Below, one piece after another: positions 7,933-43,767 of a stretch of 64,000 bases of DNA. Both the position numbers and the translations under genes were made by a program. The notes beneath the pieces were generated by a model. It searched no databases, was not told the origin of the DNA, and saw only the letters and a list, made by a program, of their open reading frames with translations. The stretch's first letter is position 1. Each line of letters opens with the position of its first letter. This DNA is from Tubulanus polymorphus (lineage: Eukaryota > Animalia > Nemertea): positions 20,125,101 to 20,189,100 of the forward strand of contig NC_134025.1 in NCBI RefSeq assembly GCF_964204645.1, written 5' to 3'.

Positions 7933-8899
7933 GCTTTTCAGTGCCTCCGTGTAGATGGGCCTAAAGAGAGAGGAAAGTACATATACTTGCAGGCAGACTG
8001 AAATCTGGCCTTTTTGAAAGCTATCAAAATACTATGGTAAATCATTACCATATTACACACACAAGGTAAAAGATGTGAGGCAGACTAAATCTGGGCATCG
8101 ATAATTCAGTTTTTGCATTACGAATAGTGGCAATGCATCATTAGCTCACTCCCAACCAGGCTGGGCCGATTCTTATATTATGTTTGAATGCATCAAACTC
8201 CTATCGTACTAACTCTTGAAAGAATAATAGCAGCTTTTTTAAGGATTTTGCAAAAAAGGCTTACAATACAGCCACACCATCTCGTAATTGAAGAAACCGA
8301 CCGCACTGCCAACTGAGTCAAAATATCAATTGTTTTGGGTCAATTGGCATGGGGGCTGCTAAGGATGGAATTTTCGACACCTTTTTAGAGTTTTCTTATA
8401 AAGAAAGATGCGGTTGGGTGAGGTAGGCAAGCTGATTTATGATAAAAGCTAGTCGCAGGAATGTTGGACATAATAGTGGCACTGCTATAACCTGAAGGAA
8501 ACAGATGCACTATAAATCTAGATCAGAAATGGAAAAATGATTCTGGTGGCCGATGTTCACTAAGAATTTTTGAAAATGTGTAACCGCGCAACAATATGCA
8601 GCCCTTGTTGAAGGAGCGACGGACCTGGCAAAAATGAATTTTACCATATTCTGTAGCTGGCTGGTGGTTTAGGAGTTGGCTGTCTGTGCAGCAATGGTGC
8701 ATACTGCCTGGCCTCCCGAAAACAGAAAACAGACAACTTGTAACTTATAACATTAGTGTATCCTGCTATATGTTCGCTGCGAATAAATACATTATGGTGA
8801 ATTCTGCATGCAGGCAGTCACAGTATATGTGTAAAATAAGGTCTTTATCAGGTCTGATCAAATTAACATTTCACAGAATGATTTTCTTTTCTTTTTTAG

Positions 8900-23800: not shown

Positions 23801-26800
23801 GTCAGGTGTGAGATCGAAACGTCGTGTTCTTATATTTTAGATTGTTTAAATTGATAAATTCTCGATTTTAGATTTCTTTTAATTTGTAAATAGTGGATTT
23901 TTATCTTATCATCTGTTCACCACGTTTGAGTGTGGTTATCGTACCATATAATTTCAATATTCCAATGTTTTAGAAAATGTATTCGATATTAGGGCCGGGT
24001 ATGCCGGTTTCATGAGAACGATTCCCATTAGCAATTTATAATAGCATAGCTGTTGTATACGGCTCCGCGTCCACTGATCATATGAGTTTCAGGTGACAAT
24101 TCAATTCTTTATTGATACTTATGTTAAACATTACATGAGATTCCCAAATTCAATAAAGTTACAAATTTTAAAATAAGAAAACACAACATACAAAACACTA
24201 GTTAGTTACCTAATCGTTGGTGGTAAGCTTTTTATAATCGGATGGGCTTGTACCAACTATAAATATGATGTGGTTTGTGAAAATATCCGATCGTGAAACT
24301 AAACCACAGACAGGTTACTGACTAACAAAACACATGCGTAACTCATACAGAATAACATAAACAAGCCCATTGCCATTTCAAATGACGATATCTACTTTAA
24401 CCCAGACTCAAGGGATCGAGTGGCAGCCTCGGGACTTAATGCCAGGTCGACCTGCTACCCAATCGCCAAATCTCACAATTCCCCGGATTTCTTAAAACTT
24501 TGATTTCAAATTTCCAATCCCACATTAGCTTATCCCAAAAATTCTACATTTTTCGCAGGCGTCAAATAATTTATTAAAATTAATTTTCTTGTTTCTTTCA
24601 GTCCACCAGGATCTACAGATCGATTGACACGGCTATGTAAACATATAATTTCTCAGAGGAGGTATGTACACTATTAGAAAATGTTAGAAACTGCATCTAT
24701 GTATATTCACTAAAGCTCAGCTTATAAAGTTGTATACCACTGAATTGTTGTGTGATATACAACTTGTATAAGTTTTATTTCATTTTATTGAAGTTTCCAT
24801 GAATGTGTTGTGCAATAAAACTCTGTATGCAGTCAATAAATGATCAGTCAGTCCCAATGCTACAGAGTAAGCAGGGCGGAGTTTGCAGTGTAACGTTTCA
24901 TGTATTTAGCGCAATCGATTGATATGATGAACTGAATTTTTTTTTTTAATACATCACATGATACGGGATAAGGGCTGTGGCTTTGCTGATTTATTGTACA
25001 TGCAAAAATGAAATCTGAACTAACACATCTGTACAGCTTGGCCGCTTATACATGTACTGCTTTAAAACTATGACTTATATGCAGTCATCGACGTGTTCTC
25101 AATTTCTATGTGCACTTGACCCTAGTTTTTCTGCCAATTATTGGAACCACGGCTTTTTGGGCACGTAATCTACGGTGTTGTCATATCACGGAATCGCGGA
25201 ATTTTTTCATTTTCACTATGCATCGTAACCGTGTTTTTGCATGGTTGGACAATGCACCGGACGCATGTTTTCATTACCGGTACCTGGTAGGCCTATGTGA
25301 TAATCTATTACTATCGTCACTCAACAAATTAACGATAGGCCAGTAGTATACAAAATAGCGGTTCTGGCGCAGCCCATCCTTACCCCGGTATACCGTGTAC
25401 CCTCTCAAAGCTTTATCTCCACCTAAATACCCTAAGAAGACAACCCCTGTGGACCGCGGTTCTGGCGCAGCCCATCCTTACCCCGGTGTACCATGTACCC
25501 CCTCAAAGCTTTTTCTCCACCTAAATACCCTAAGAAGACAACCCCTGTGGACCATGGAAAACACGCCAAGGGGCCGGCAAACCCCCTCCGGCCCCTATTA
25601 ACCAACCGCTATAATGCACCTACAACAAAGTGTTATTTACATAGATATTTACAGTATATACAAGTATGTGAAACGCTCTGACCTGGAATTCACCTCTTAA
25701 GCTGACGCTATCAGCGGTGCGCTGCGACCTGATTGTCACTGATTGCGAAATAGCCTAGAAAGTTCTATGCTGACGCAGAAGCCGGCAAACAACCGAGACA
25801 TCGACAGGCAACCAGAGTCATGTCCCTTGGACATGGCCAGGCCGGCCAACACACCAGGTGAAGCGCATCTCGTGAGAGTCCTGGTTCACTCACCAAGGTG
25901 GATATAGATTCTGCGTGGTCAGAAATGGACACAGATCTGATCTATCAAAACCTGGTGAGTGACATTAAAGCCGGGTTGCCGAAAACCCTGAAACAGCGGA
26001 AATGTGAATTACGGAAGACGCTGTTCAAGAATGAAGCCAGCTCGAAAGAATTCTTCGGCCTAGTGAGAAAAATCAGCAAACTCAACAGGGCAAATCGGTT
26101 CTTTACAACAGCCAAGCAGATTATTACGGGTTCCCCGAGCAATCAAACGCAGGAGGATGCATTTCCGACTAAACGACGGGTGAAGGAATACTTCACGGAC
26201 CTGTATTCTAGTAAGCAGACCGGTCCTATTCCTAAGCCACCCGTCAAGAACGTTGCGTTCCCGTTCGATATGTCACCGATAACCGCAGCTGAAATCGAAA
26301 AAGCCTTGAAGAGCAGCAACCCAAAGTCCGCTCCAGGTCTAGACAGGATCAAATACGGACATCTCCGTCAGCACACCCATCGACTCGCGCGATTTTACAA
26401 CGACATACTAGATACGGGAAGGCCACCTTCGAAAATCTCGGCGTGGTGCACCAGTATTGTGACGCTTCTATTCAAGAAAGGGGACCGCCGGGATCCTGCT
26501 AACTATCGTCCGATTGCGGTTACAAGCGTGATCTCGAGGCTCCTTCATTGGATAATGGCGAAACGCATAGAACGCCACGTCATTAGGAACGGATTCATCG
26601 ACACTGCCGTACAAAAAGGATTCGTGTCGGGCCTTCACGGGACACTGGAACATTCTGAATTATTAGAGACTAAAATCATCGAAGCCGAAAAAACTGAAAA
26701 TGACTCATTTGTGACTTTATTTGACCTTAAAAATGCATTCGGTTCAATCGAACACGAACTGGTAAGTGAAACGCTATCTGTCATTGGAATTCCCGCAAGC

Positions 26801-29800
26801 TGGTATAGGTACCTAACGGCGCTGTATTCTCAAATTTCTAGCAAATTCAAAGGTCCTTGGGGCACGGTCGATATCCCCTACAAACGAGGGGTCTTTCAGG
26901 GTTGCCCTCTTAGCCCCCTAATTTTCATCCTGTGCGTAGAACCCCTCGTTAGAATACTGTCAACCGGGACATCCCTAGCCTATGCAGATGACACAACGCT
27001 GGAAACAAAATCGGCAAAAGCCCACTTAGATATAACGTACGTGTTTAACAAAAAAGCCAAGGAAATGAACCTCGAACTCAGGCCGGACAAATGCGTTTCC
27101 CTGAGCGTTAGATGCGGACGAATTGAGCCATTCAAAAACGAGATAGAGGGCAAAGACACCGCGACCCTCACCGATTTGGACAGAATAACGTATCTAGGCA
27201 AAATTTTCAGTCCCAAGGGACAGGATGGGGTGGGTGAAATTCTCCTCACAAAATTCAGGCAACGACTCGCAAACATAGATAACGCCGATATACAAAGCGG
27301 GACAAAGGTTCATATCGCTATAGACTATATGCTGAGAGCTGATTACCATGACCTCATGATCAACAACCTGTCTGATAATTGCTTGCAGTTAATCGACAGT
27401 GTCTTTGTAAACACGCTACATAAATGGGGTCACCGTCGATTGCTCACTTTTCAAGTACCGTCCACCGTATACCACTGGCTTCATGCGTTGAAGGTCTACT
27501 TCCTTATCACTTCTCCCGACGAAAAAATCGTTGAAGTAGCCATCTCGAAATTCGAAAACAGCCATTATCTCGATCTCGCTTTCGAATCCCTCAACCATAA
27601 AAACTCGAAGGCGTTCATAAAACGCCACTACTTAGGAATATTCGCGCACGCCACCCCCGACCCAGAAAAATTCCCCTGTAGCTCTAAGGCGTTTGACGTA
27701 TTCGACATCTATCCGGAGCATATACCCGAAGTGTATACAGACGGCTCGTGCCTGAGAAACGGTGCAGACGAGGCTCGTGCGGGCTACGGCGTCTACTGGG
27801 GACCAGACAGTCCCTTAAACACCTGTGGCGTCGTCTATCCACCTACCAACAACAGAGGTGAATTAACCGCTGTGGTCGTGGCTCTCAATCAGGCCATCCA
27901 GCTTGGTATTAACTCCTTGCAAATTTTCACCGACTCGAAATACGTTATAAACGGTATCACTGATTGGATCAAGACGTGGAAAGCCAGGTGCTGGAAAAAC
28001 GTCAAAAACCGCGATCTCTGGACACAACTGGATGGTCTGAATAACCGAGTCTCCGTATCTTTCAAATACGTCAGGGGTCACCAGGGGGTACACGGGAATG
28101 AGATGGCGGACCAACTAGCTAAATCGGGAGCAGCTCTCAATGGTAGTAATCCGGGGGTGACGTGTCTCTGTTAAACTCTAACGTTAACCTCCATCCAGCT
28201 TTTTTATGATGGAAGCCCTGGCCTGCTCCCTGCCCTGCCTGATGAGGTCCTTTTTTGTAGCCTCGTCGATCGTGATCGACCCGTGTTTTTTACGAGCCTG
28301 TGACTTGATATCCTGCTTCAAAGTCTGATAGTTCCTCTGTTCGGCTAGAATCAGCTTGAACTCGTCATCCGAAACAACTCCATCACTTATTGCCCTCGAT
28401 ACAAGATCTGACACGGTGCTTAGTTTGGAAGAGGCTAACACTCGAATTTCGTCGTGCTTTTTACCCTTGATCAGAAGCTTCCGACCGACTATCTTCCCAG
28501 ACACGCCTAAGACGCCTAGGACGGTCGCAACGGGGATGGTGATTATGTTTGTAAGCACGCCAGCGGCTCCCGTAGCCGCGACTGCTATGCTAGCCGTCAC
28601 GAAAGCCGCGTCAAATCCATCTATGGTTTTCACCGCCCTTTTATACTTCTTGTAGAGCGCAGCGCGGGATTGTCCCTCGGACTCTAAAATTTTCTGGACT
28701 TCGCATATTTTCTGCAGTCGGAAGTTCGACGCATCTTCAGTTGGAGCACTAGGCTCAGTTGGAACCATTGGGTAAAGTTTAGTGTCGCTATCCATGCTAT
28801 ATACTATGCGGGAAAATGTCGAGCTCGATGAGGAGTGAAGCTATCGTAGCTATTGCTCGAGTAGCGGGCGATCTTGACGACTTGAAATTGATGACGTCGC
28901 CCTCGGCCATTCGACTGGTGGAGAGAACGTTTTGACCGCGGCTTGGAAGACTCCTTTACCTTGGGGTTTGATCGGGCCCTGTAAAAGCCGAGCCTCTTTC
29001 GTGATTTCTCCTTTTTCCACCCTGTTGACGGTCAACACTACTGTGGTATTAGTTGTCAAGTCGCCACCGGAGAGGCCCATTTTTAGCACTCTCCCCACAT
29101 CATCGTGTAGCCCGCGTACTGGGATCGCGACCCATCACCGTACGAAAATTCGTAAGAGCCCTCACCAAGGGGTCCTTTTTCCTCGGCCCAAACGGTTATC
29201 ACAGGTTTTGTGGTGGACTGTGTTTTCCCTAATCCCCTGTACAAGTTCATCTCTATTCTAATGCGAGCAAAATTTGGAGCGGTTCCTGGAATCGAATCTC
29301 CTCCATGTCCTGATTGAAAACCTTGACCACTACGTCGGCGAAGCCGCCTTCCTTAATTGGTATCGGTACCCCGTAAACATACTCGAATGAGTCGCCGTAT
29401 TGACCTGCTTTCGGATGTAAAATGGCGATCAGGTCCGAGGGCACCCCGTTTAGGAAGTTTCTCGATTCGTCAACGAGATTGCACGTTACGCGGTATTCCG
29501 TATGCCTGGTAAACCTACATTCTTTCGTACCCCTTACACTAGCCTCTTTACCTTCGACGTTTGGGTAATATCCTTCTGGGACTCCCAACAGATCGGTGAT
29601 GGAGCCGCTGAAGAGCACTCAGTACGGTTTTGACATTGAGTTCGATGCGCCCCCTCGCCTCCACGTAGGCTATGTTAATGAAGCCCGGTTTGTGACCGTT
29701 TCGGGTTATGACTCGCTGAATTTCGTCGTTCAAACTCTCAACCGTGTAAAGTCCATTCCTGATAATCAAGTTGAACACTTTTTGTTGGTGCTCGTCCACC

Positions 29801-32800: not shown

Positions 32801-35800
32801 GAATAACCGTAGAGTATGCTGTTGATCAGACTGTCGGAAACCGCGGCGGAATAATGGTTTTCGTACTCCGTCCACACCCGTTCGAGCGCTTTCGAGTTCA
32901 TCTTCTTAAGTTGACCTTCGGATTTCTTGATACCTATTTTTGCAAGCAACCCGCTCTGAGAAAGCCCGACAAGTAGCTGCCTGCGCCCTTCCGACTCGTC
33001 GTCTTCGGGTGATTCTACATCCAACCCAATGTCACTCAGTAGTTCGTCGTAGACTTCGTCCATGTTCGCTATATGTTAGTCGTCCGAAATTTAGAATACC
33101 CCGTAGGCGAATGGATACTCGAGGCGCATGACGAGACGGGCCCGATTCCTAGCAGAGAGATCTGCGATCACACGTTCCCTTTTGGTTTTCGGGACGATGT
33201 TGTTTTCACGCAGAGCATCCTTTAAACCATCCTCGTCTTTTTGGTGGTACAGGACTAACATTCTCAGGTTTTCTCGGAAATCTTTCACAACGGCGTTGTA
33301 TTTTTGAGTGAGCACCCACACTGAGATATTCAGATGACGGCCCGAGAACGCGAGTTTCGTCAATTCGGACGACTTGGTTTTAGTATCCCTCAAGTTGGCA
33401 CAGTCGTCTATAAGAAACAGAGTTTGACAATGAGGATCGCCGTATACTTTGGTGCACGTGGAAAGCAAACCGTCTAGGTCGTTTAACACCGAACCCGGGT
33501 TCATGACGAAGATATTGGGGTCCTTCATCACAAACGATCTATCGTAGGTGGTGTTCTCGAGGAAAGTCGGGCAGAAAATCACTATATTGTGGAATTTGCC
33601 GCGATAGACAGATTGTAGGAGGTCGAGCACGTAGTCCGCAGTTTTTCCGCAGTTCGTTTGCCTCGACACAATCATGTTGAACGGGGGCTGTAACCAAAGC
33701 CTATCCATCTCCGCTATACATTAGAACAGAATCGCCTTTAATTGGTTGTTCTGGATGTTTACTTGGGCGTCGGCTACGACGTAAATGAACATCGTGTACT
33801 CCGTTGTGCTGGTACGGGTGATGGCTAACTGAACGCCGTCCTTTGTGTTGACCAACCTTAGACCAGATCCGTGAAGCGAGTTATCGTCTGTGCTTCTGAG
33901 ATCGATCCACAATGCGTATTTGTCGTCGACGAAGAACGAGAACTCGTCTATGTGCGACTCGTCGGTTTCTTTGGCCGATTCTGGCATCAGAAATCTTCTG
34001 CACTCTTCCCATTGTTGGTAAGGTTTCAGTCCTTGCTTGTAAACTTTGTGAGATATTCCTTCGATCGTGACATCGACGTTCTTGATTTTAGGGTTCTGAA
34101 ACGAGGTGGATTCGGAATCGTACTGCCCGTTGTCAAACTCTTCTTGAAAGAATATCAACAGGCCCTTCATCGACCTTCGGGGAACGTTAACGTTTACGTT
34201 CAGAATTGTTGAGGTTCCCGTGGATTGACTCCTGAAGAACGTGACGTAGTCGTACAAGAAGCTTACCCCGGCGGACAGGTCGCCTTCGATCTGTCTGGCG
34301 AGCTCCGCCGAATGCACGGTGTCGTATTCGAGGGCTATATTTTTCACGGAGTATCCCCATGCCTCCGCACTCCCGTTTACAGTGAACTTGATTTCGTTGA
34401 AAGTGATCTCCCTAACAAAGTCTTCGTTGATTGCGAACGGATAGAAAGGACCGTGGTCCGTGTACAGTTCGAAATCAATGGGTATGGCGTACCTGTTCTT
34501 AAACACCGACTTGATCATCGTTTCCTTGGTGTTGGTTTTCAAGGCGTCTTCTGCATCCGATCTGAGTTTCCTCAAGTTCTCGTTGCCGATTCCTTCCAGA
34601 ATCATGTTACTTCGCCTTTTGTCCGTAAGCCACAGATCTTTGTAGGTCTGGAAGACGAAGCTGTAGTTCAAATCAGATAAGATTTCACCACCCAGTTTGT
34701 CAACAATTCTGGCCATTAGGTTCCTCGAAATGTTGTTCACGAAGAAGTTATTAGCCGGACCCTCTTTGCTGAGGTCGAACGCGAGTTTCAAGCTTCCGGG
34801 TACCAGCAGCGTGTTCACCTGCAGTTTTGGTATCCTTACGTAAAGGGTTTCCCCCGGTGACACGGACGAAGGGTTGTGGGTAATAACCTCGTGGTGTCGA
34901 TCCGCCTTGACACCTAGCGGTGTTCGAATCTGTCTCGAAGGGTTCAAGTGTTTACCGTATGCAGACATAGTAGCTATACTGTAAGCCAGAAAAAACTCGC
35001 TTTTCCGTCTCATGGTAATTCTGACCAGCCACCTTGCTCGATAACCCAGTATGCGAGATTGTCGTTAAAGAACTCCCTCGTTCTAAATGCGATCTCTTCG
35101 ACGTAATAGAGGTTATCGGTGACTCGGAAGAAATGCTTAGCCAGATAGCTAGCGAATGCGATTAACGTGACTATTCGACCCCAGTTTACGCGGTTGTCGG
35201 TGAACATCTTCCAAATCGCTTCCAGATTTATTTCCTCCCAGGCGAAGCCGGACAGAGCCATGAACTGCAAACTGTATCGTTCAATGCCTGCGACCACATT
35301 CCCTTTCAGTTTTCTGCTGAGATCGTTGTCTTGAATAGGCTGCCCGGTAGCATACCATACTATCAAGTCACTCACAGGATGCATTTTGTCTCTACTATAT
35401 ATACCGCAGGAAAATGTTTCCACCAGAATTTGTGTACGATCCATCGTCGCGTTACTCCGTACCGGTGGTACCATTCAAAGACAAGCTCGACTACAGAGGT
35501 GACATTCACAAAGCTTTGACGTCGTTGAGGATACAAGTGTCGAGTAGGGTTGACGATTACTTTCAGACAACTGTACCGGACATATTCAGGATTTACCCGA
35601 TCCGCTTTAACAATCTCGGCGAGTTTCGAGTTTGGAGGCGCACGAACACGAAGTTCTGGCAGAACCAACTCAACTTTGCCATTTGGTGCGCCACAAGCGG
35701 TTGCGGGGTCTCCTGGAAGAACCACATGAACAACTCCTCTCCGTTGGTAACCAGTTTGTTCCGATTTCACGTTTATTATCAAACGAGGAAGATCCTATCG

Positions 35801-38800
35801 GAGATGAAATGTCCCCTACCAGCCAACAGCGGTTTCAACATGCTCGATAATCCCGTGAACGAACTAGCGTTTGAACGTATCTGCGGCGAATTCAATGTCC
35901 CCCAAAACACTGACTTTAGGTATTGGATCGGAGAAGCAGGCGATCTGGGCACGCTTTACACGAAACAGTACCTGAACGAAAAAGGATGGGTTAACTTCGT
36001 GGCACCCGAAAGTCACTGTCTGACCAAAGCCCGGGTGGAACGCCTGAACGACTCCATTCGGGCGTACGTTTACTGCATCCTAGGAGCCCAAGCACAAACT
36101 CGAAACGTCATCGTCGGTGACACCAGTACTGCGTTTGACGCTCAGAAACAATTCTTGGCCCTATTCGAGGACGCCGTACACGGCGAAGGCTCTCAGACTT
36201 TGGTAGATTCCATTCGGCGCTATCAAAACGCTATCAGTCAGACGCACAGTAAACTCGATTTCGCCGTCGGACCAAACCTCTACCTGATGCCGAGTGACAT
36301 GGTGCTGAAAATGGGAAGCTTGGTACGCTACAATAACAACATTAGAGTGGCTACCGACAAAATGAAGTTCGGAATCGATGACGTCAATGAGGCACGGCCA
36401 CCGCCAAAAATAGTTACCACGGAAAAGAGCAAAGTGGTTCGCGATATGCAAACAGCAGTACGCGAGGCCCCTCCCCCACCTAGGCCCTCACATCCTCCCA
36501 ACACTCCTCTTACGGTCAGACAAAAGGACAAACTAGCGTTCGCGTTAGGTACAGCAGTAATCGTAGCGTCTGGTGTGCATTTTCTCAAGAAGTAGGTATA
36601 GGGAAAGATGGAAGAGGTTTGGACGAAACACGGCTACTCGTCGGCCCTGAAACTGTACAGAATTATGAAAAAGCGTGATCCCGGTGTTACGTTCGCAGAA
36701 GTTGACAAGTTTGTATCGGCGAAGAAGACTTATCAGCTACATAAAAAGACGCGCAGACAAATTCAAGGACATATCGTAGCCTACTGCGAGAACTGCCTTT
36801 GGTTCGCGGACCTACTGGATCTGTCGAACTACGGTCGACGAAACAAGGGATACAAGTGGATTCTACTTTGCGTTGACGTATTCACTCGAAAGGCCTACGC
36901 GCAGCCGTTGAAAAAGAAGACCAAGGAAGCCGTCAAAGAGGGATTCGAGGCAATCATGGAAGGTCTCGGCGAGGAGAAAGTGACTCTAGTCACCGATTCT
37001 GAATCGGAGTTTCTAAACAAACCGATGCAAGAACTGTTTAGGACGCTGGGAATTGAACACAGGACTGTTGATGTTGGCGACCACAAAGCGCTTGGCATCA
37101 TCGACAGGCTGTCTAGGACGATAAAGGAGATCATTTTCAAGGATTTCACCGAAAGAGAAACCGTCGTGTGGTACGATCGTTTGCCAGATTACGTAGATGG
37201 CTACAACGCTACACCTCACGGGGGTATTTCAGATATGACTCCCGAAGAGGCCGGAGAATCCCGAAATGAAGAAAGGTTACTGTTCGAAAATATCGGCAAA
37301 TCCGAACCCCCTAAGAGCCCGTTCAAGCCAGGCGACAGCGTAAGGAAAAAGCTGAAAAGACCCGTGTTCAAAAAGGGTTCAAACAGTGCACTCCCTCGCG
37401 TCTGTGGAAGGCTTAAAAGGGGTCCTCGATAATGGAGAATCAGCTAGGTTGGACGATCTGCAACTAGTGATACCTCCAGCTGAAGAGAAGACGACGGTAG
37501 ACGCTGTGTCCGTAGCCGACAAAGAGCACAAGATAGAGCAGACTATCAAGCACAAGGAGGGTTTGTCACCCGAAGCGGTAATGCCCTCGAATAGCAGGTA
37601 CAGCCTGCGATCTAAAGCTCGTTGAGCAATTCCTCGACGTACTCGTCCAACGGAGTCCTGGCATTTTTGTGGCCGTAAGCGAGCGTAGCGATACCATCGT
37701 CGGCGATCCACCTCTTACTGTCGAAGGGACTGAGACTCTGCTTTGTCATACGCAGGCCGTACATTTTGTGACCCTCGCTTCTCAGCATATTCATTCCGTG
37801 CTGGAAGACCTTCTTTTGGAACAGACATTCCTTGTATTGCTCGTGGCGGATCTGTTTCTTCACCACGTTCTTTTTCACACCCTTGGCCTTCTTGATGTTA
37901 GTCTGATCGGCTTTTAAGATGCTGTACATCTTCGGTCTGAGCCCGACGTACTCCTGGATGGGTGTACCCGCGCACTCGTCTTTCATCTTACCTAGAACCT
38001 TCTTGTTGACGTTGCTATGCAGCGGGTGATTTCCCGGGTAATCGCTAGTATCGTAAAGGTCGTTGTTCGATTCCATGTCTTCGTAGATGTCTTCCGTCTC
38101 AATCTCTAGCAGAAGACTGTCGGTGTCAGTGTACAGCAATCGAGTACAATCGCCGTATACCTGTTTCATGTGGTTATAGTAGAAGTCGTACATCAGCAGC
38201 TTGCTGAGATCGAGCACAGACATCCCTACGTAAACGGGCCTATTCAGGTACAGATTAGTCTTGTACATGTGCATCGCGGCAAGATCGTCGTCAAACACCT
38301 TGGACCTGGCGAAGTTCGGCTTGGCTATCAACTTCCTCAACCTGTCTTCCTCGTTTCATCTGACAAGCTTCACGTCTACCCTGCGTCTAAGATTTTCCAT
38401 GGTCTTGCCGAATACGGAGTTATTCATCAGCTTGTACAGGTTCTTCTCGAAGTCGCTGGTTGCTAGCTTTCTTAGTTTTGTGTTCAGTCTTATATACGGC
38501 TCCATCCACGGCGATTGGTCGAATTCGAGGGCGCGATGAATCTTTGTGAGCTTCAGTCCTAGCTCCAGGTACAACTTAAGGTTCCTGTAATGAACGACGT
38601 ATCTCTCCTTGTTGCGGAGATTAGGCACCAGTTTTTCCGTTTCGGTCGAACCCCCCAGTCTTCCTAACAGATCTTGCTGGTACTGCGACATCCAAGCTTC
38701 TTGAACCTTAAGCCTTTCCGGTGCCAGTGGGTACTCGTTGTGCGAGTCGTGCAGCCCCCTGGGGTATTCCAAGTCTACCTCTAGAATGTAACCTTTCTCT

Positions 38801-41800
38801 GCGTCATCCGGATGTCCCGATACATTGAGTTCTTGCGGCCTTTCAACCCACTCGAATCCGCCCGTAGGCAGGTGTTGCGACATAGCCCAGCCATATAAGA
38901 TATTCGCGTCAAGGTACATTACGTGTGTCGTCGGCTTCTTTGGATCGTGACCGGGAACCAAAGGATTGTTGGCCCTGCAGTGGCGTTTGCTGACCATGGA
39001 AATGCCACCTCGCAGACCCTTTTCGATGAATAAGAACTGGTCGTAGTCCATTAAGAGCTCTAGTTTAACCTCTGTTTTCTTAAGTAGAGCGTCCCAGCTA
39101 AGACCCGGGCTGGTGTAATACTGTGCGGGATCTAGGCCGTACTGCTTCACGCAAGTGGACCTGAAATTCTCGAATACATCGGCGAGAAGAACCGTATCGG
39201 TCCTCAGATAGAGGTCGTGGTAGTCACCCATAGTACGGCACTGAAACTGAAACTACGGCACTAGTCTTGATCGCTGATTCCCGCCTCTGATAGCTTGCTG
39301 TAGAAGGCTCCTTTTGACGGAAGCTGGGTATCCTGGAATTTCTCCCAACTGTCCATGTACTCGTATGGGTATACGCCCTTTCTCAGTAACAGCTCTAGTT
39401 TTTCAGGTACAGGTTCGGCCGCGGCTGTCAGCGTAAAGCTCCCCTTAGCGGCTGACGCAACCAGTCTGTCAGTCTGTCAGGTGGGGCCAGCAAGAACTGC
39501 ACAGAATCGATGAACCGCAAATTACCGAGACTGAATGAGATGTACTTCTCCATGTTATTCGGGATGCACGTTATCTTTCCTTCAGTCCGACAGATTGCCT
39601 GCATGATGAGATGAGAGTCGTAACCGCGGAGGTTGTGAAACACAGCCGGTATAGGCGTGTATTTCGCGGACAGTCGCAACTTGAGATTGCACTCGTTGTG
39701 GGCCGGGCCCCGGTAGTCACCCGTTATGTGATCGTGATCCCTGACCCGATCCTCATAGAGTGGTTTGTCGCATACGTAGCAATTTTCCGCTTCCTCGAAT
39801 GACGTTTGCTCCTCCCGAGTAGTTACCATAGGCGCGGGATGGGCGAGCACGCCCTTGATTTTCTCCTCTTCCCCTTGGAGGTGCTGAAGGAATACCGCCG
39901 CAGCGTCTTGGCCTCTATAAAGGACGGGTGGTTCTTGTTTACCGTCGCTTCTCACTACCACGTACGAGAACCCGCACGCCTTGTGAAGTTGAGTCTTTTC
40001 GCTACCTTTCTGGTTAGGGTTCCTTCCCGGCCCCTCGAATTTGGTTGTAATGGCTTCGAAGTCGGCATAGATGACGAACGGAATCTTGAGCTGCTTGTGA
40101 TGATTGGTGAACCGCAGCACTTTGTCCTCCTCCGAGGGCATACTGGTACGCATCGGACCTCCGTTGACTCCTCGACAATCTGACCTGTGCCTCTCCAGGA
40201 GATCTTCTCTGGTGAAACAATGAAGGCACCGCTCGCAGCAGTGTTTCCTCCCTTCAAACTTACTCTGGGTGAACAACAGGCGATTGAGGTCTTTGATCCA
40301 TGTGTAATGCTGTTTCTCACCGCTCTCTACGAGTAGCAAGTTAATTCTAGGAATGGGGGCCGGGCCATCGCTGATATGCAGTGGGTACACGCCTTTGTCA
40401 TACCCGAACACGTTGATTGCCAGTCCGTTTTGTCGTTCGACCATAGGAATCTGACTCAATGGTGTTGGTGAATCGATGCCTGTAAAGTCAAGCTGGTCCC
40501 AGTGATTCGCATACTTCGATGGCCTCCGGGGGTCTCTCTCTACGGGGTATTTCGAGGCCAGTATTGACCACTTAAGGCAGTGATCATCTCTATTTTTGAC
40601 ATTTACGACGGCGTGTCTTCTCTTGACTGCGACGGGGAGGTCGATATAAGAACCGCCTCTCAACGGTTGATATCTGGCGATATTCAGGAATAGTTCGACT
40701 ACCCTCTCTACAGCCCATCCGGAACCTTCTCTCATATAATTCTCAATACTCTGTAAAACCCTAGCTTCAGCTTTACCCAACTCCTCATTTATGTTAGCCG
40801 CCTTCGATAGAACGTATTGCTTCGACCAGAAGGGCGGCTCGACGTGCGCATAGGTGCCGTCGTTCTTCTCCTTCCTCAACGAAACCCGCAGAGCAATGGA
40901 GAATTTTACACCCTTAAGGTCAATGATCTCCTCGACTAACTTCTCCCTTACATTGTTCCGCTGTTCGCGCAAGAATATCGACGGATCAGTCACATCGGTG
41001 GCTGGTCTCAAAACCCAGGCCCTCAGATAATTTTGGATAGCAAACGGGGCCCTATGAAACGCGGGTTCTGGCTCCGGTAGAATCTCATCCCAAATCGGAT
41101 CATCGTCCGGTATAATGTTTTCTACCTTGTACTTGGGTTTTCTGGGGGCGGGTTTTGGCTTTCTCGGAGCAGGCGTCGGTCTGCGGGTCAACTGGTTGAT
41201 GGCATCGGCATATGTTACGACAGTAATCTGCCCGTCTCGAAGTAAATCGGTCAGACTTTTTACCGCGCTGTCCATCTTGCTTTCGCATATATGAGAAATA
41301 TATGTCTCTAAATGGAAATTTTTGGGGGGCCCCTCGTCAGAAGTCGGCACACGCCGAATGTTGGCCGGGCCTGGCCATGTCCAAGGGACATGACTCTGGT
41401 TGCCTGCCGATGTCTTGGTTGTTTGCCGGCTTCTGCGTCAGCATAGAACTTTCTAGGCTATTTCGCAATCAGGTGGCAGCGCACCGCTGATAGCGTCAGC
41501 TTAAGAGGTGAATTCCAGGTCAGAGCGTTTCACATACTTGTATATACTGTAAATATCTATGTAAATAACACTTTGTTGTAGGTGCATTATAGCGGTTGGT
41601 TTATAGGGGCCGGAGGGGGTTTGCCGGCCCCTTGGTGTGTTTTCCATGGTCCACAGGGGTTGTCTTCTTAGGGTATTTAGGTGGAGAAAAAGCTTTGAGA
41701 GGGTACACGGTACACCGGGGTAAGGATAGGCTGCGCCAGAACCGGGGTCGGGCTGCGCCAGAACCGCGGTCCACAGGGGTTTTCTTCTTAGGGTATTTAG

Positions 41801-43767
41801 GTGGAGATAAAGCTTTGAGAGGGTACACAGTATACCGGGGTAAGGATGGGCTGCGCCAGAACCGCGGTCCACAGGGGTTGTCTTCTTAGGGTATTTAGGT
41901 GGAGATAAAGCTTTGAGAGGGTACACGGTATACCGGGGTAAGGGTGCGCTGCGCCAGAACCGCTATTTTGTATACTACTTAGGCCTACTTCCAGAGAAAA
42001 TGGAGAACCTACGAAGGCAGTTAATCTATCAACACTTTGACCGTATCTATGAGGTGTATGTTGTAGAATTATATAAAAGAGAAATATCCCAAAATGAACG
42101 ATGTCAGACAAAAACAGATACACATTATGCATATTTTGGCTTTGGATTTTTAATGCGTCTCGTGCATGTAAATTATGATTTATGCGAGTGTGGTGTATCT
42201 AGAAGAGTTAATAGAAGTTGAATGATATTAAAGATTATATATATAAAATGGTATCTTTTTTAACACTGTTATTTGTGGAGAGAAAGCTGTTACTTAGTTG
42301 CTTCTCTGTGTTGATTCCTTGGGTCAAAAAATGTAATATCTGTAATAGACGGAGGTTTCTATCAAAATAATTTTTAAGGAACCGCGGTACATGTTTGGTA
42401 GTAGCACATTTCACGCTTGCAGCCATCTGAAACTAGAGCGACCATGCTCAAATCTACTAAGATCACAAAAAATCGATTAACTTCGATAACCGATGTTTGC
42501 CCTGTTGCCATACTCTTTGTCCGACTACATGCTGACTGCTGCTGCAGCTGGTAACTGAACGTAATCAATGTCAGATAAAATTGCGTGCTAGTAGTGTGAT
42601 TCGTAGCTAACTCAGTGAATCAATTGGTCTTGTGCCCTGTCCGACACCGGGTATCCCTGTGGGAAAACCCGGTTACTGTTTATAGTGAAAGTGAAGAAAT
42701 TCCATGTTTTTTTTTTTTTTAATTTCGTGATTCCGTCATTCCGCGTCATGACAACACCGGGTAATCTAGGATGCTGGGTAGCTTAACGTTATTTTGATTC
42801 ACAATGAACTGAATACTTGTGAGCAGGAATTTTGATATAACTGATTTCATGTCGTTGATAATTGAGGCGTGACTGCATGTGATTATCGATTACTTTTCAG
42901 TTATTATCCACTTTATCCTCCTGGTGAAGATGTTAATCTGGAATTTGAAACGTTCGAAAACCATGCCCGACTACCATCTGTGCCTCATATACTTCTGGTC
43001 CCATCAGATCTACGATATTTCATCAAGGCAAGTTTCAAATTTAAATTAGCTGCATTATGCAGTAGATTCGATGTATCTTGGATCCTTTTACTCTGTAATA
43101 TTGCTCTTCTATGAGACGAGTCAGAAGTCTTAAGAACTGCAGTCTGCTGCATGTCCTATAGAGGTTATGCAAAGAGGTCATACACATTGTTTGTCATCAT
43201 AGTGTCCATCAATTGTGACTTAGCTTCAGGTAGCCCCTTGCACTAGATAGGCAATATGGCGCGCATCATGTGCATGATCACTATTGAGTACACTTGGCGA
43301 TCTCAAAAATATGAAGATATGTTCACTGAAGCATTTCTTCTCAATAGGTTCCTAGTGCACCAGCAAGAACACAAGACGCCAAAAATTCAAAATCCCTGAT
43401 TTCCAATTAGAGTCGGAATGCCCCAATTTTCCGGAAAAGATATACTGTATCTGAAATTCCTTAATTTCCTTGGAAAGAACTGATAGCGTCTCTTAGCAAT
43501 AAATAATTGCCCTTTTCATCAGGTGCTGCCCCTCCATATATGCACTGGATCCGCCCCTGGTCTACTGGTACATCCATTATTGTTTACTCGATGTACTTAA
43601 CGGTTTATGTTTTATGATTTTAGGAGGTTTCCAAGTGTTGTTGCATAAATCCTGGAAGATTGGCGAAAGGGAAAAGTGGTGGCACGTACGCTCGATTCTA
43701 TCTGCCTCACGTTGACAGTTCAAAACCGTTATTTCAACAACTTTCCGCTCAAGTGTTGAAAATTTAG
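8900..43767 (+). CDS. POLA2: DNA polymerase alpha subunit B, multi-exon; first coding exon not located in the window
   Basis: Exons read by hand with consistent phases: 8900-9021, 9894-9976, 10140-10197, 11415-11527, 16490-16680, 16757-16854, 17465-17620, 17942-18004, 18164-18203, 18524-18642, 22055-22164, 22361-22457, 22817-22926, 24602-24661, 42901-43027, 43624-43767. Conserved motifs: FMFQK, GRICCDS.GKLN, YSLFPGQVV, VACGPFTTS, LGPFID, VPSSRDVHH..YPQPPF, DPC...ING..IGLTSTD, QRSYYPLYPP, PSDLRYFIK, CINPGRLAKG..GGTYAR. Confidence 0.95.
9977..10139 (+). other. U12-type (minor spliceosome) GT-AG intron in POLA2
   Basis: 5' site GTATCCTTTT, branch point CCTTAAC at 10115-10121 about 18 nt before the CAG, little polypyrimidine tract, reading frame preserved. 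Confidence 0.85.
10443..10543. repeat. Short inverted-repeat element (MITE-like)
   Basis: ATAATCGAAGAAGTCCCAC ... GTGGGACTTCTTCGATTAT. Confidence 0.55.
11609..11833. mobile_element. MITE with CAGGGTGGCC termini and 5-bp TSD
   Basis: CAGGGTGGCCAC...GCGGCCACCCTG, flanked by TAGCA on both sides. Confidence 0.7.
11888..13368 (+). mobile_element. Helentron-associated interspersed element (HINE/DINE-1-like)
   Basis: 5' ACCTTCATGAC...GTCATGAAGGT hairpin, 3' subterminal inverted copy GTCATGAAGGT then stem-loop AGGCCCGTGGGCCT, T-run flanks, internal ~120-bp degenerate tandem repeats at 12.8-13.15 kb. Confidence 0.6.
13486..14076. mobile_element. hAT-like non-autonomous element with 6-bp TSD
   Basis: CAGAGTCGCCACTT...AAGTGGCAACTCTG, flanked by TAACTG on both sides. 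Confidence 0.75.
14718..15606. mobile_element. Non-autonomous DNA transposon with ~50-bp TIRs and TTA TSD (PIF/Harbinger-like)
   Basis: TGCAACCGTCAATTGTAACCCTGAACCCCCCCTCCTCAGG and its inverted copy ending at 15606; TTA on both sides. Confidence 0.75.
20187..20541. mobile_element. GC-rich palindromic MITE (PIF/Harbinger-like, TAA/TTA flanks)
   Basis: GGACACACTGGGCGATTTCGTCG and inverted terminal copy; several internal AATCGCCCAGTGTGTCCG repeats. Confidence 0.75.
20903..21524 (+). mobile_element. HINE/DINE-1-like element containing a (GTTC)n microsatellite and three ~120-bp tandem units
   Basis: 5' TTAGCTCCGCTGTG, 3' CACAGCGGAGCT plus short stem-loop and T-run; (GTTC)n at about 20953-21041; repeated GTCCTACAGTTTTAATCAGATCAA units. 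Confidence 0.7.
21553..21753. repeat. Near-perfect 101-bp tandem duplication in an intron
   Basis: CTGGTACTCTTGATTTTATTTC...GCATCATTCGGT starts at 21553 and again at 21654. Confidence 0.9.
22579..22619 (-). ncRNA. Minimal type I hammerhead ribozyme in a Penelope-like pseudo-LTR relic
   Basis: Minus strand CAC-CTGATGA-A-GCTACTA-TACAT-TAGTAGC-GAAA-GC-TC-GTG: complete core, 7-bp stem II, stem I CAC/GTG. Lies in an inverted duplication at about 22547-22697. Confidence 0.75.
23768..23809 (-). ncRNA. Second minimal hammerhead ribozyme (different Penelope-like family) at the centre of a ~190-bp palindrome
   Basis: Minus strand ACAC-CTGACGA-T-GATCTC-TAGTGT-GAGATC-GAAA-CG-TC-GTGT. Palindrome spans about 23704-23891. 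Confidence 0.65.
25342..25851 (+). repeat. Left terminal inverted repeat (~510 bp; two 98-bp tandem units at 25358-25553)
   Basis: Reverse complement of 41359-41979 apart from unit number and small indels; the match ends at ...GGCCAACA. Confidence 0.93.
25925..28174 (+). CDS. Non-LTR-type reverse transcriptase fused to C-terminal RNase H, no endonuclease (749 aa from the first ATG)
   Basis: RT motifs SAPGLDRI.Y, LLFKKGD...PANYRPI, QKGF...G..EH, DLKNAFGSIEH, RGVFQGCPLSP, YADD (26981-26992), YLG. RNase HI from 27731: YTDGSC, AGYGVYWG, TNNRGEL, FTDSKY, NRDLW, VRGHQGVHGNEMADQLA. Frame opens at 25862 after a TGA at 25859-25861. Confidence 0.95.
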   Translation: MDTDLIYQNLVSDIKAGLPKTLKQRKCELRKTLFKNEASSKEFFGLVRKISKLNRANRFFTTAKQIITGSPSNQTQEDAFPTKRRVKEYFTDLYSSKQTGPIPKPPVKNVAFPFDMSPITAAEIEKALKSSNPKSAPGLDRIKYGHLRQHTHRLARFYNDILDTGRPPSKISAWCTSIVTLLFKKGDRRDPANYRPIAVTSVISRLLHWIMAKRIERHVIRNGFIDTAVQKGFVSGLHGTLEHSELLETKIIEAEKTENDSFVTLFDLKNAFGSIEHELVSETLSVIGIPASWYRYLTALYSQISSKFKGPWGTVDIPYKRGVFQGCPLSPLIFILCVEPLVRILSTGTSLAYADDTTLETKSAKAHLDITYVFNKKAKEMNLELRPDKCVSLSVRCGRIEPFKNEIEGKDTATLTDLDRITYLGKIFSPKGQDGVGEILLTKFRQRLANIDNADIQSGTKVHIAIDYMLRADYHDLMINNLSDNCLQLIDSVFVNTLHKWGHRRLLTFQVPSTVYHWLHALKVYFLITSPDEKIVEVAISKFENSHYLDLAFESLNHKNSKAFIKRHYLGIFAHATPDPEKFPCSSKAFDVFDIYPEHIPEVYTDGSCLRNGADEARAGYGVYWGPDSPLNTCGVVYPPTNNRGELTAVVVALNQAIQLGINSLQIFTDSKYVINGITDWIKTWKARCWKNVKNRDLWTQLDGLNNRVSVSFKYVRGHQGVHGNEMADQLAKSGAALNGSNPGVTCLC
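28184..28795 (-). CDS. Polinton membrane-associated protein with central hydrophobic hairpin and N-terminal LYP/PSAP motifs
   Basis: Intact 203-aa ORF; hydrophobic AAFVTASIAVAATGAAGVLTNIITIPVATVLGVLGVSG; TATAG 1 nt before ATG. Confidence 0.8.
   Translation of the reverse strand: MDSDTKLYPMVPTEPSAPTEDASNFRLQKICEVQKILESEGQSRAALYKKYKRAVKTIDGFDAAFVTASIAVAATGAAGVLTNIITIPVATVLGVLGVSGKIVGRKLLIKGKKHDEIRVLASSKLSTVSDLVSRAISDGVVSDDEFKLILAEQRNYQTLKQDIKSQARKKHGSITIDEATKKDLIRQGREQARASIIKKLDGG
28797..29250 (-). pseudogene. Small beta-rich Polinton structural-type protein, two frameshifts
   Basis: MNLYRG...ITVWAEEKGPLGEGSYEFSYGDG...GYTMM / GRVLKMGLS...TFSPPVE / AEGDVINFKS...ASLLIELDIFPHSI*, joined across frames; fills the gap between penton and the next gene exactly. 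Confidence 0.6.
29253..29970 (-). pseudogene. Minor capsid protein (penton), one frameshift near 29610
   Basis: ORFs 29548-30042 and 29253-29618 join into about 240 aa with penton-type motifs YFNVS..NN.F.Y, NGLYTVESLN, VTCNLVD...NG..SDLIA, IPI...V.VKVFNQD...I.F. Confidence 0.75.
29982..31030 (-). pseudogene. Coiled-coil plus C-terminal membrane protein, interrupted by a stop (30374-30376) and a frameshift/deletion near 30285
   Basis: ORF 30374-31030 (acidic N-terminus, coiled coil) reads on past TAA, then shifts into ORF 29982-30281 (LAGKGAAALPGMIGTVVSFLL...LVLWFIAAVGL). Confidence 0.65.
31003..31498 (-). pseudogene. VLTF3-like (poxvirus A2 / NCLDV late transcription factor 3) C-terminal domain protein, one frameshift
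   Basis: F...FPRRKNFLSYGFFLNRILELHG...K...Q...LWE resembles the RKNFLSY.Y.L..L.ELLG signature as I recall it. The upstream part MDDPYGILP... (ATG 31498) is in another frame. Confidence 0.6.
31502..31921 (-). CDS. Small Polinton membrane/coiled-coil protein with an in-frame TAG at 31559-31561 before a C-terminal TM helix
   Basis: MATAAVIIGGAIANAVAFTGG...ERERHDKAMERL...; the frame continues after TAG as AFILGSVILTGVIAYKYL*. Confidence 0.7.
31924..32163 (-). CDS. Small hydrophobic Polinton protein (79 aa)
   Basis: Two hydrophobic segments, tight packing with neighbours, TATAG 4 nt upstream. Confidence 0.7.
   Translation of the reverse strand: MATNPDYRTIANVLYHSAILSGLTVGYAMLGKKMLRFDVGDPSKADLSEAMKLTVAVSLATISKDYLEKSKILPPNIGT
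32189..32512 (-). CDS. Small basic protein with a single TM segment
   Basis: MELEQVE...KQKSPGRVAWGKKLAE...WIAIGRLLVGLGALYY; TATAG 2 nt before ATG 32512. Confidence 0.65.
   Translation of the reverse strand: MELEQVEQVTTNPHKQKSPGRVAWGKKLAEISRQQRASKKTAAPIVGSDDENRTQSKHLQMWIAIGRLLVGLGALYYQRMALNQTPKPEENTEPTPEPLTCRLVEMT
32560..33063 (-). CDS. Polinton hypothetical protein (167 aa, acidic N-terminus)
   Basis: Intact ORF between ATPase and the small membrane genes; TATAG 5 nt upstream. Confidence 0.7.
   Translation of the reverse strand: MDEVYDELLSDIGLDVESPEDDESEGRRQLLVGLSQSGLLAKIGIKKSEGQLKKMNSKALERVWTEYENHYSAAVSDSLINSILYGYSKLCKWVRPKVDTEQLNKELTENFVITAEMKNQLGHLGRILKTPILAIANVAVITGKNMADSEESDLSTCPQVTSPLADK
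33091..33708 (-). CDS. A32/FtsK-HerA family DNA packaging ATPase
   Basis: PFNMIVS-RQTNCGKT (Walker A with the first G replaced by R), LFLIDD (Walker B), SGRHLNISVWVLTQ. Confidence 0.9.
   Translation of the reverse strand: MDRLWLQPPFNMIVSRQTNCGKTADYVLDLLQSVYRGKFHNIVIFCPTFLENTTYDRSFVMKDPNIFVMNPGSVLNDLDGLLSTCTKVYGDPHCQTLFLIDDCANLRDTKTKSSELTKLAFSGRHLNISVWVLTQKYNAVVKDFRENLRMLVLYHQKDEDGLKDALRENNIVPKTKRERVIADLSARNRARLVMRLEYPFAYGVF
33721..34968 (-). CDS. Major capsid protein (double jelly-roll, hexon-like)
   Basis: Intact ~415-aa beta-rich ORF next to the ATPase (NPSSVSPGETLYVRIP, LVPGSLKLAFDL, NIALEYD, NVNVPRRSMKGLL, LWIDLRS..D..LHGSG). Start placed at MSAYG after TATAG. Confidence 0.8.
   Translation of the reverse strand: MSAYGKHLNPSRQIRTPLGVKADRHHEVITHNPSSVSPGETLYVRIPKLQVNTLLVPGSLKLAFDLSKEGPANNFFVNNISRNLMARIVDKLGGEILSDLNYSFVFQTYKDLWLTDKRRSNMILEGIGNENLRKLRSDAEDALKTNTKETMIKSVFKNRYAIPIDFELYTDHGPFYPFAINEDFVREITFNEIKFTVNGSAEAWGYSVKNIALEYDTVHSAELARQIEGDLSAGVSFLYDYVTFFRSQSTGTSTILNVNVNVPRRSMKGLLIFFQEEFDNGQYDSESTSFQNPKIKNVDVTIEGISHKVYKQGLKPYQQWEECRRFLMPESAKETDESHIDEFSFFVDDKYALWIDLRSTDDNSLHGSGLRLVNTKDGVQLAITRTSTTEYTMFIYVVADAQVNIQNNQLKAILF
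35010..35384 (-). CDS. Viral Bcl-2 family protein (BH1 + BH2, no TM anchor)
   Basis: MFTDNRVNWGRIVTLIAF (BH1 NWGR) and WVIEQGGW (BH2). Start placed at 35384 from the TATAG motif; the ORF could extend to ATG 35444. Confidence 0.88.
   Translation of the reverse strand: MHPVSDLIVWYATGQPIQDNDLSRKLKGNVVAGIERYSLQFMALSGFAWEEINLEAIWKMFTDNRVNWGRIVTLIAFASYLAKHFFRVTDNLYYVEEIAFRTREFFNDNLAYWVIEQGGWSELP
35414..36595 (+). CDS. Polinton hypothetical protein, 393 aa, Pro-rich linker and C-terminal TM anchor
   Basis: Intact ORF; QLNFAIWCATSGCGVS, FHVYYQTRKIL, YVYCILGAQAQTR; C-terminal LAFALGTAVIVASGVHFLKK. Confidence 0.8.
   Translation: MFPPEFVYDPSSRYSVPVVPFKDKLDYRGDIHKALTSLRIQVSSRVDDYFQTTVPDIFRIYPIRFNNLGEFRVWRRTNTKFWQNQLNFAIWCATSGCGVSWKNHMNNSSPLVTSLFRFHVYYQTRKILSEMKCPLPANSGFNMLDNPVNELAFERICGEFNVPQNTDFRYWIGEAGDLGTLYTKQYLNEKGWVNFVAPESHCLTKARVERLNDSIRAYVYCILGAQAQTRNVIVGDTSTAFDAQKQFLALFEDAVHGEGSQTLVDSIRRYQNAISQTHSKLDFAVGPNLYLMPSDMVLKMGSLVRYNNNIRVATDKMKFGIDDVNEARPPPKIVTTEKSKVVRDMQTAVREAPPPPRPSHPPNTPLTVRQKDKLAFALGTAVIVASGVHFLKK
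36608..37625 (+). CDS. Retroviral-like (rve) Polinton integrase, frameshift near 37385 in the C-terminal part
   Basis: WFADLLDL...NKGYKWILLCVDVFTRKAYA.PLKKK, LVTDSESEF, GIIDRLSRTIKE, YNATPH...MTP, FKPGDSVR; tail continues in ORF 37386-37625. Confidence 0.92.
37612..41275 (-). pseudogene. Protein-primed family B DNA polymerase (pPolB), at least 3 frameshifts/indels
   Basis: Exo YADFE, FHNLRGYD, YLRTD..LLADVFENFR; KGVYPYEY (39.35 kb); Pol YLDANILYGWAM, KLMNNSVFGKT, YTDTDS, K.KGV; zinc module C..C...RDHDHITG.YRG.AH..CN; N-terminal NVKN.DDHCLKW...HYTWI (vOTU-like protease region). Confidence 0.95.
41359..41979 (-). repeat. Right terminal inverted repeat (~620 bp; three 98-bp units plus a ~22-bp internal duplication)
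   Basis: Reverse complement of the left TIR; units span about 41648-41963. Confidence 0.93.
43028..43623 (+). other. GC-AG intron (last POLA2 intron)
   Basis: AAG|GCAAGT donor right after the conserved PSDLRYFIK; joins in frame to EVSKCCCINPGRL. Confidence 0.8.

Follow-up and report, generated by a model that had tools for sequence, protein, structure and literature searches.

Polintons are thought to replicate via DNA only, and the reverse transcriptase (RT) genes in such viruses have so far been reported as nested parasites. Here we describe a gene in which an RT of the type found in long interspersed nuclear elements (LINEs) is fused to a ribonuclease H (RNase H). It lies in a Polinton within a 64,000-nucleotide stretch of the nemertean Tubulanus polymorphus genome (contig NC_134025.1, positions 20,125,101 to 20,189,100, forward strand), which we call the window and whose first letter is position 1. 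The RT-RNase H gene (25925..28174, + strand) encodes 749 aa in one open frame. It is a real, conserved and apparently undescribed Polinton gene, and we are highly confident of its anatomy and of its residency in the virus. The protein has lost the CCHC knuckle and the restriction-enzyme-like endonuclease (REL), the gene is as numerous as the virus around it and shares its neighbour with a second contig, and its protein sequence has long been under constraint. A resident, constrained RT-RNase H would show that a LINE enzyme was adopted by a DNA virus.

Several described systems resemble parts of this locus. The following sources were covered in part, and our statements refer to those parts: PMC4640811, PMC8097293, PMC8502044, PMC8557442, PMC10830420, PMC11071296, PMC12220804, 10.1101/2024.03.25.586562 and 10.64898/2026.07.28.741278. 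Polintons, Mavericks and adintoviruses (PMC8097293, PMC8502044) share with the window element AGTAGT terminal inverted repeats (TIRs), a 6-bp target site duplication (TSD), a protein-primed DNA polymerase B (pPolB), an rve integrase, an ATPase, a capsid protein and Bcl-2, but the window element differs in having a resident RT-RNase H gene. The REL-clade LINEs (CRE, R2, R4, NeSL and HERO; PMC4640811) are similar to RT-RNase H in RT sequence and fold, and its RT nests among those REL LINEs that have short N-termini. Unlike them, our protein has no CCHC and no REL, its gene has no untranslated region (UTR) or tail of its own, an RNase H is found at the C-terminus and the gene is copied within a DNA virus.

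LINEs that bear an RNase H, i.e. the I group, plant L1, Proto1, Dualen and the oomycete Utopia, likewise combine a non-LTR (long terminal repeat) RT and an RNase H in a single protein (PMC4640811). Utopia retains an endonuclease, which our protein lacks, and its RNase H is positioned upstream of the RT and is of archaeal type, with Arg for His (PMC4640811), whereas the RNase H described here is downstream, of the His type and closest to animal RNase H1. Compared with the LINEs that carry an RNase H and an apurinic/apyrimidinic-type endonuclease (APE; I group, plant L1, Proto1), our protein has no APE, and both its RT and its RNase H stand apart in trees (ultrafast bootstrap, UFBoot, 98 for the RNase H). 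The I group, plant L1, Proto1 and Dualen retain an endonuclease.

Athena and Coprina, the endonuclease-deficient Penelope-like elements (PLEs; PMC8557442), also have an RT without endonuclease and use exposed 3' ends. They differ in their telomerase-related RT, telomeric repeats, hammerheads and chromosome-end targets, and no fused RNase H is mentioned in the part of the paper covered. The RT of our protein is not telomerase-related, as R2 and L1 match it best in both sequence and fold. Other RTs in double-stranded DNA viruses are the nested retroelements of virophages and Polinton-like viruses (Ngaro, Copia, LINE), which are inserted elements that bring repeats or integration enzymes of their own, and the MegaRT of large DNA viruses, which is group II intron-like (10.1101/2024.03.25.586562). 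In contrast to both, RT-RNase H has no element boundaries, and its composition and copy number match those of the virus.

We found no description of a resident Polinton RT in the literature searched, with Repbase, subscription journals and some supplements lying outside the search. The strings 'transcriptase' and 'reverse transcript' do not occur in the main texts of the Polinton papers searched. Four motif strings had no match in the searched part of supplement file 2 of PMC11071296, where line breaks could split a motif, and there were no matches in the supplement of PMC8502044. The PMC11071296 supplement has 41 RT labels, and the 21 examined resemble ordinary host LINE or LTR pieces in uncurated contigs. 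The legend of Fig. 1 in the Buck preprint lists RT.

Anatomy of the RT-RNase H protein

The gene call draws on the open reading frame (ORF) list, Pfam and the N-terminus of the full-length relative P0001. The frame starts at either 25898 or 25925 and ends at 28174 on the + strand; the ATG at 25925 agrees with the N-terminus of P0001 and is used for residue numbering. An extension of the ORF further upstream is blocked by an in-frame stop at 25859, and between the left TIR and the start there is no space for an extra nuclease exon. In the ORF, Pfam identified two families, RVT_1 (E 7e-30) and RNase_H (E 4e-35). No family of endonucleases matched, and residues 1-130 and 441-600 had no Pfam match under E 0.1.

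A preliminary description of this DNA had proposed an R2/HERO-like RT core without APE or REL, fused directly to a cellular-type RNase H1, and the residues agree with it. The all-helical N-terminal extension (residues ~1-120; 25925..26284, +) is equivalent to the L1 tower or the R2 N-terminal extension and is not an APE; as had been suggested, the ~130 aa before the RT are too few for one. The fingers and palm with motifs 0-7 (26327..27214, +) carry SAPGLD at 135, QKGF at 230, EH at 242, DLKNAFGS at 267 and YADD at 353, and the catalytic residues D267, D355 and D356 are invariant across a 38-row alignment. The thumb and the wrist/linker helices (residues ~432-575; 27218..27649, +) contain neither CCHC nor REL. 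They are followed by an acidic-Tyr-Pro-acidic motif (residues 594-598; 27704..27718, +), which matches the C-terminal tail of RT-only endonuclease-less relatives and is the probable fusion point.

The RNase H1-type domain (27728..28138, +) has all active-site residues (D606, E646, D670, H719 and D729) and the basic protrusion, WIKTWK at 681. Among solved structures human RNase H1 matches the domain best (E 7.5e-31), and both the His loop and the basic protrusion are in register. Among the ten top stand-alone RNase H matches the seven named ones are all animal, and six of these are labelled RNase H or RNase H1. Cellular RNase H1 has a hybrid-binding domain at its N-terminus. Pfam found no match to this domain in the ORF, and the RT takes that N-terminal place.

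The absence of an endonuclease was examined by motif and by structure. Regular expressions for the CCHC knuckle and for PD-(D/E)xK matched neither our protein nor seven close relatives, while both were found in 7/7 full-length REL LINE controls. The structure of residues 1-594 was modelled from 38 sequences (predicted local distance difference test, pLDDT, 89; predicted template modelling score, pTM, 0.85), and this model was used instead of a poor earlier one from a 6-row alignment (pLDDT 63). Residues 1-93 and 432-570 are predicted to be entirely helical. The model overlays residues 282-1062 of L1 ORF2p over its residues 1-575 and residues 242-885 of R2 over its residues 1-583 (Z 31-33), with a root-mean-square deviation of 3.6-6.7 Å across 488-554 residues. 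The best solved sequence matches of the RT are also R2 proteins (E 3.5e-43).

No nuclease family appeared among the fold matches; RTs occupied these lists, and both terminal parts were folded only as portions of 1-594. The endonuclease-free L1 core of PMC10830420 runs from the tower (240-440) to the wrist (863-1061). Since the model matches this tower-to-wrist span, residues 1-130 and 480-600 are ordinary RT flanks. According to this confident model, an endonuclease-free L1/R2 RT core fills residues 1-580 and leaves no room for a nuclease. A divergent endonuclease fold hidden in residues ~1-130 or ~480-600, raised earlier as the finding that would overturn the proposal, was seen neither in the model nor in the fold matches nor by Pfam.

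Residency, relatives and history

The preliminary description missed the Polinton context in its title. RT-RNase H is located in a 16.6-kb island of ~49% GC, compared with ~37% GC around it. The island is bounded by a left TIR that begins with AGTAGT and has two 98-bp tandem units (25342..25851, +) and by a right TIR that ends with ACTACT and has three ~100-bp units (41359..41979, -). The 6-bp TSD TAGGCC flanks both (25336..25341 and 41980..41985). We assign the element to the Polintons because these TIRs and the TSD, together with pPolB, integrase, ATPase and a likely capsid, fit the description in PMC8097293. RT-RNase H is the first gene at the left end. It starts 74 nt to the inside of the left TIR, and the pPolB frame starts 9 nt to the inside of the right TIR, in mirror arrangement.

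We saw no 3' UTR, poly(A) or TSD belonging to the RT gene itself; its stop is 9 nt from that of the convergent neighbour, and AATAAA/ATTAAA is absent within 28001-28400. At third codon positions the GC content of the RT is 0.54. This resembles the 0.55-0.71 of nine further ORFs of the virus, whereas a host gene has 0.33 and free REL LINEs (eight compared) span 0.36-0.50. Host reads came from run X5 (raw DNA reads, about 12% of the run, from a study other than that of X1-X4). Summed depth in X5 was 53-68 in three bins within the RT and 46-83 in twelve bins over 28.0-35.2 kb, and contigs of run X1 agree (197-224 over the RT vs 164-215 over the viral region). The copy number is roughly 5-10, as estimated from one flank position (depth 6 in X5 and 35 in X1). 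X5 had neither excess depth nor 3' bias over the RT, and no joint skipped the RT among the 15 listed out of 62, an exclusion that holds for those 15 only. Therefore the gene behaves as a part of the virus and not as a free LINE. The traits of REL LINEs, an own 3' UTR or tail and dispersed 5'-truncated copies, were not found for it. Run X7 gave just 5 short partial matches.

The host reads also contain internal-deletion copies, with joints 35296-39625 (21 reads, X5) and 34924-37576, which lost the integrase region and part of pPolB. Depth is lower over 35.2-38.8 kb alongside these joints. The Polinton is inserted in a multicopy host repeat (25337 / 41994), and many reads join both flanks without the element.

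A search for the same endonuclease-less architecture, as had been suggested, returned two proteins and one metagenome locus. Only P0001 and P0002 of 108 matches are collinear over both domains. P0001 has 733 aa, 41% identity, 98% coverage and the same start and end as our protein, and the partial P0002 is 51% identical. When no length limit was set, the best 150 of 58,234 matches again held these two alone and no longer parent protein spanning RT and RNase H. The metagenome survey kept 80 loci of at least 316 confirmed; five loci had no parsable frame. L001 is the sole locus among the 80 with an RNase H downstream of the RT, and 19 of the next 23 have a REL motif. It is 50% identical to the window RT-RNase H and continues into a convergent, tail-to-tail gene homologous to the neighbour in the window (36%, E 5e-16), with a 3' gap of 65 nt vs 9 nt in the window. 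Over 493 codons the window and L001 are 61, 71 and 35% identical at first, second and third positions, respectively, and they differ at 81/115 four-fold sites. Such a codon-position pattern with saturated synonymous sites therefore indicates a long separation under protein-level constraint. In viral contigs no close relative was found with the RT protein, the alignments A1/A3 (only distant RTs, 24-26%), P0109, the neighbour gene or the capsid.

The RT was placed by IQ-TREE with 48 hand-picked rows and by FastTree with 83 of 195 extracted RT segments, leaving out near-duplicates, multi-RT and short rows. P0002 and P0001 group with it, and all three fall in a clade of ten endonuclease-less RT rows (SH-aLRT 99; FastTree 0.994 with the 83 rows). 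REL LINEs with short N-termini surround this clade (SH-aLRT 98), which stands apart from the APE LINEs. We presume the RT to be HERO-like from its architecture and motifs rather than from named HERO elements in the trees. The RNase H tree (51 rows, 133 columns, five near-duplicates dropped) joined our domain with that of P0002, three proteins from nematodes and two short unnamed RNase H proteins (UFBoot 99), with P0001 next (75). The RNase H domains of LINEs mostly fall into a group of their own (UFBoot 98), and deeper support in this tree is weak. The RT and RNase H trees speak against a simple truncation from a known RNase H-bearing LINE clade, the other outcome that would have undone the earlier proposal. 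The two short proteins, P0159 and P0160, are stand-alone RNase H proteins and form, with the three nematode RNase H1, the group nearest to our domain.

The RT-only endonuclease-less relatives are a family of 580-690 aa with an acidic-Tyr-Pro tail (P0003, P0004, P0005, P0262, P0109 and P0131). In P0005, two C2H2-like motifs lie within an insert. An atlas row for giant viruses names an RT-only cluster of 605 aa (score 0.84), which is a lead only. The tail ends 6/7 RT-only members, which amounts to about three lineages because four of the six carriers are close kin, and in our protein the motif is positioned just before the RNase H. Its Tyr is present in these six, in our protein and in P0001, and is Phe in P0002. 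The shared tail upstream of the RNase H suggests that the nuclease was lost first and the RNase H appended later. In such a history a HERO-like LINE RT would have lost its C-terminal nuclease half, the catalytic domain of an RNase H1 would then have been joined after the remaining RT tail, and the gene would have been copied passively by pPolB and integrase. Protein-primed RTs that prime on a tyrosine might offer an analogy for the tail.

Besides the small number of joints, several points weigh against a kept viral gene. The neighbour gene has 57 relatives vs two for RT-RNase H, therefore most such Polintons seem fine without the RT, though short contigs and 50% clustering may hide members. 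Of the 57 other neighbour-gene relatives, 56 are nearer the window's copy than is that of L001 (37%). Therefore RT-RNase H is patchy or has moved between Polinton lineages, as far as short contigs and clustering allow this to be read. L001 is 2.1 kb long with a frameshifted RT, and one gene alone ties it to Polintons. Since the window copy decays, with pPolB in three ORFs, its open RT frame may be chance. Finally, purifying selection suits a selfish element equally well.

Function and rival explanations

In the preliminary description the enzyme was held to be unable to nick DNA and to depend on 3' ends that arise elsewhere. This follows from the anatomy, but a restriction to DNA 3' ends is too strict, as short RNA hairpins can likewise prime the equivalent L1 core (PMC10830420). 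Without its endonuclease, that core works both as RT and as DNA polymerase, accepts 5-nt DNA ends as well as RNA hairpins as primers and switches templates (PMC10830420). The sources of ends named at the time, linear viral ends and the integrase, are available because the gene lies inside a Polinton. The function we favour, at about an even chance, is that of a kept viral accessory RT-RNase H which would copy RNA templates onto 3' ends provided in trans and afterwards remove the RNA. The gene would be expressed early with pPolB, from a promoter duplicated in both TIRs (a bacterial promoter scan of the window is not meaningful for an animal virus). Replication, the integrase or pPolB's EndoVII-like domain would generate the viral DNA ends used for priming. 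RNA-templated extension would then repair broken or nicked viral DNA ends, which is the least certain step, and the RNase H would free the cDNA for re-annealing to viral DNA. As a by-product, host mRNAs could be captured as intronless genes.

The other explanations differ in whom the enzyme would serve. It might be a selfish hitchhiker that homes to ends: the RT would bind its own TIR-initiated mRNA, prime on a broken or stalled 3' end near the terminus and copy itself and the inner TIR, the RNase H would free the cDNA to anneal to the TIR in a retrovirus-like strand transfer, and the gene would spread into Polintons that lack it. We regard this as possible but rather unlikely. The route needs a nuclease loss and an RNase H gain, and the same slot is occupied, with patchy presence, in two distant neighbour-gene lineages. 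The 5' end of the RT faces the terminus, and in end-capping retroelements the 5' end likewise points toward the terminus; yet chance alone would give this orientation half the time, and pPolB has it too. Endonuclease-less PLEs also attach to exposed ends (PMC8557442). On the other hand, 3' UTR, poly(A) and TSD are all missing, the gap at the 3' junction is 9 nt in the window but 65 nt in L001, and the depth shows neither extra or 5'-truncated copies nor a sign of RT-less viral copies in the host. The RNA of the inner TIR and RT leader (25554-26001) folds strongly (z -3.8; z -3.9 for 25882-26001), which would suit homing, but the right TIR beside pPolB folds as well (z -4.2), so the fold was dropped as RT-specific evidence. 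Values of z < -2 occurred in 4/61 segments over 25.3-29.0 kb vs 3/52 elsewhere. A counter-defence nuclease is improbable. Promiscuous priming would turn host or antisense RNAs into RNA:DNA hybrids for the fused RNase H to destroy, or the RNase H would clear hybrids and R-loops on viral DNA. The complete RNase H1-type active site and the Bcl-2 host-modulation gene of the virus would fit, and L1 cores form cytosolic hybrids without endonuclease (PMC10830420), but RT-only relatives persist without RNase H and hybrid clearing needs no retained RT.

Polinton-like viruses and virophages have been described to harbour nested retroelements (PMC12220804; 10.64898/2026.07.28.741278), and the gene could by analogy be ordinary debris, namely a chimera or truncated LINE inserted into a single proviral copy. 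This is largely refuted and very improbable: P0001 keeps the same start and end, L001 has the matching neighbour, the depth equals that of the virus, the best 150 of 58,234 matches include no longer two-domain parent and the RNase H falls outside the LINE group. Equally remote is a replication route via RNA, in which RT, RNase H and rve integrase act as a retrovirus-like set and a genome-length provirus transcript is copied to DNA for exit or replication. One element does encode all three activities, and internal-deletion copies that lost the integrase and most of pPolB are common (35296-39625, 21 reads, X5), but pPolB, the standard TIR ends and the 6-bp TSD are kept, both strands carry genes, neither a primer site nor terminal redundancy was observed and the RT is seemingly missing from most relatives.

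More broadly, endonuclease-free LINE derivatives in linear DNA viruses might form a new class, which we consider less likely than not. They would be primed by viral ends or their own tail tyrosine and would use RNase H-assisted strand transfer at terminal repeats. The RNA-to-DNA route thus given to Polintons might be end-homing, telomerase-like end repair or, at the extreme, a retro-type provirus exit with the integrase. The set of RT, RNase H and separate integrase known from LTR elements and retroviruses would here be repeated from a LINE starting point. The role of a LINE RT without nuclease, Polinton end repair or chromosome exit and the gain of intronless host genes are open to test. As compact LINE-type polymerases, the natural 749-aa RT-RNase H and its ~620-aa RT-only relatives are of practical interest.

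Other features of the Polinton and the window

The convergent neighbour (28184..28795, -) encodes 203 aa, has its homolog at the same position in L001 and is presumably of GasderminX/PW type. Further inside are an A32-type packaging ATPase (33091..33708, -; Pox_A32, E 3e-14) and a likely double jelly-roll (DJR) major capsid protein (33721..35013, -). The capsid candidate was identified by language-model look-alikes only; it scores 0.97-0.98 to viral clusters, with DJR-like and Capsid_N families on a minority of cluster members. In the window copy the rve integrase is a 274-aa ORF (36608..37432, +) and pPolB is broken into three ORFs (37612..41350, -). No Pfam or PHROG match to an adenain-type protease or a minor capsid protein was found among the scanned ORFs, several of which are broken or have no assignment. 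Rfam gave no hammerhead ribozyme match over 25200-42100, where minimal variants could escape.

The first pPolB ORF (39428-41350, -) contains an EndoVII-like (His-Me) domain (Pfam E 2e-5 and PHROG matches), a possible nick source in trans; homing-endonuclease inserts have been noted in Polinton pPolBs (10.1101/2024.03.18.585575). A Bcl-2 family gene without introns is present at 35010-35474 (-; Pfam E 2e-13), and Bcl-2 homologs were noted in adintoviruses (PMC8502044). We also observed three tandem repeats of 23 bp (32539-32611) and a VLTF3-like fragment (31003-31335, -), whose Pfam match (E 1e-4) does not reach the cut-off.

The sole result of the genome-contig scan, L085, is unrelated: its contig, filed in a bacterial genome bin and likely eukaryotic contamination, holds two tandem full-length REL LINEs with N-terminal zinc fingers (2205-12518). 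Outside the Polinton, the window contains a broken BEL/Pao retrotransposon (2397-4610, -) and an inverted repeat of 87 bp at 23703-23892 (98%, 16-nt spacer).

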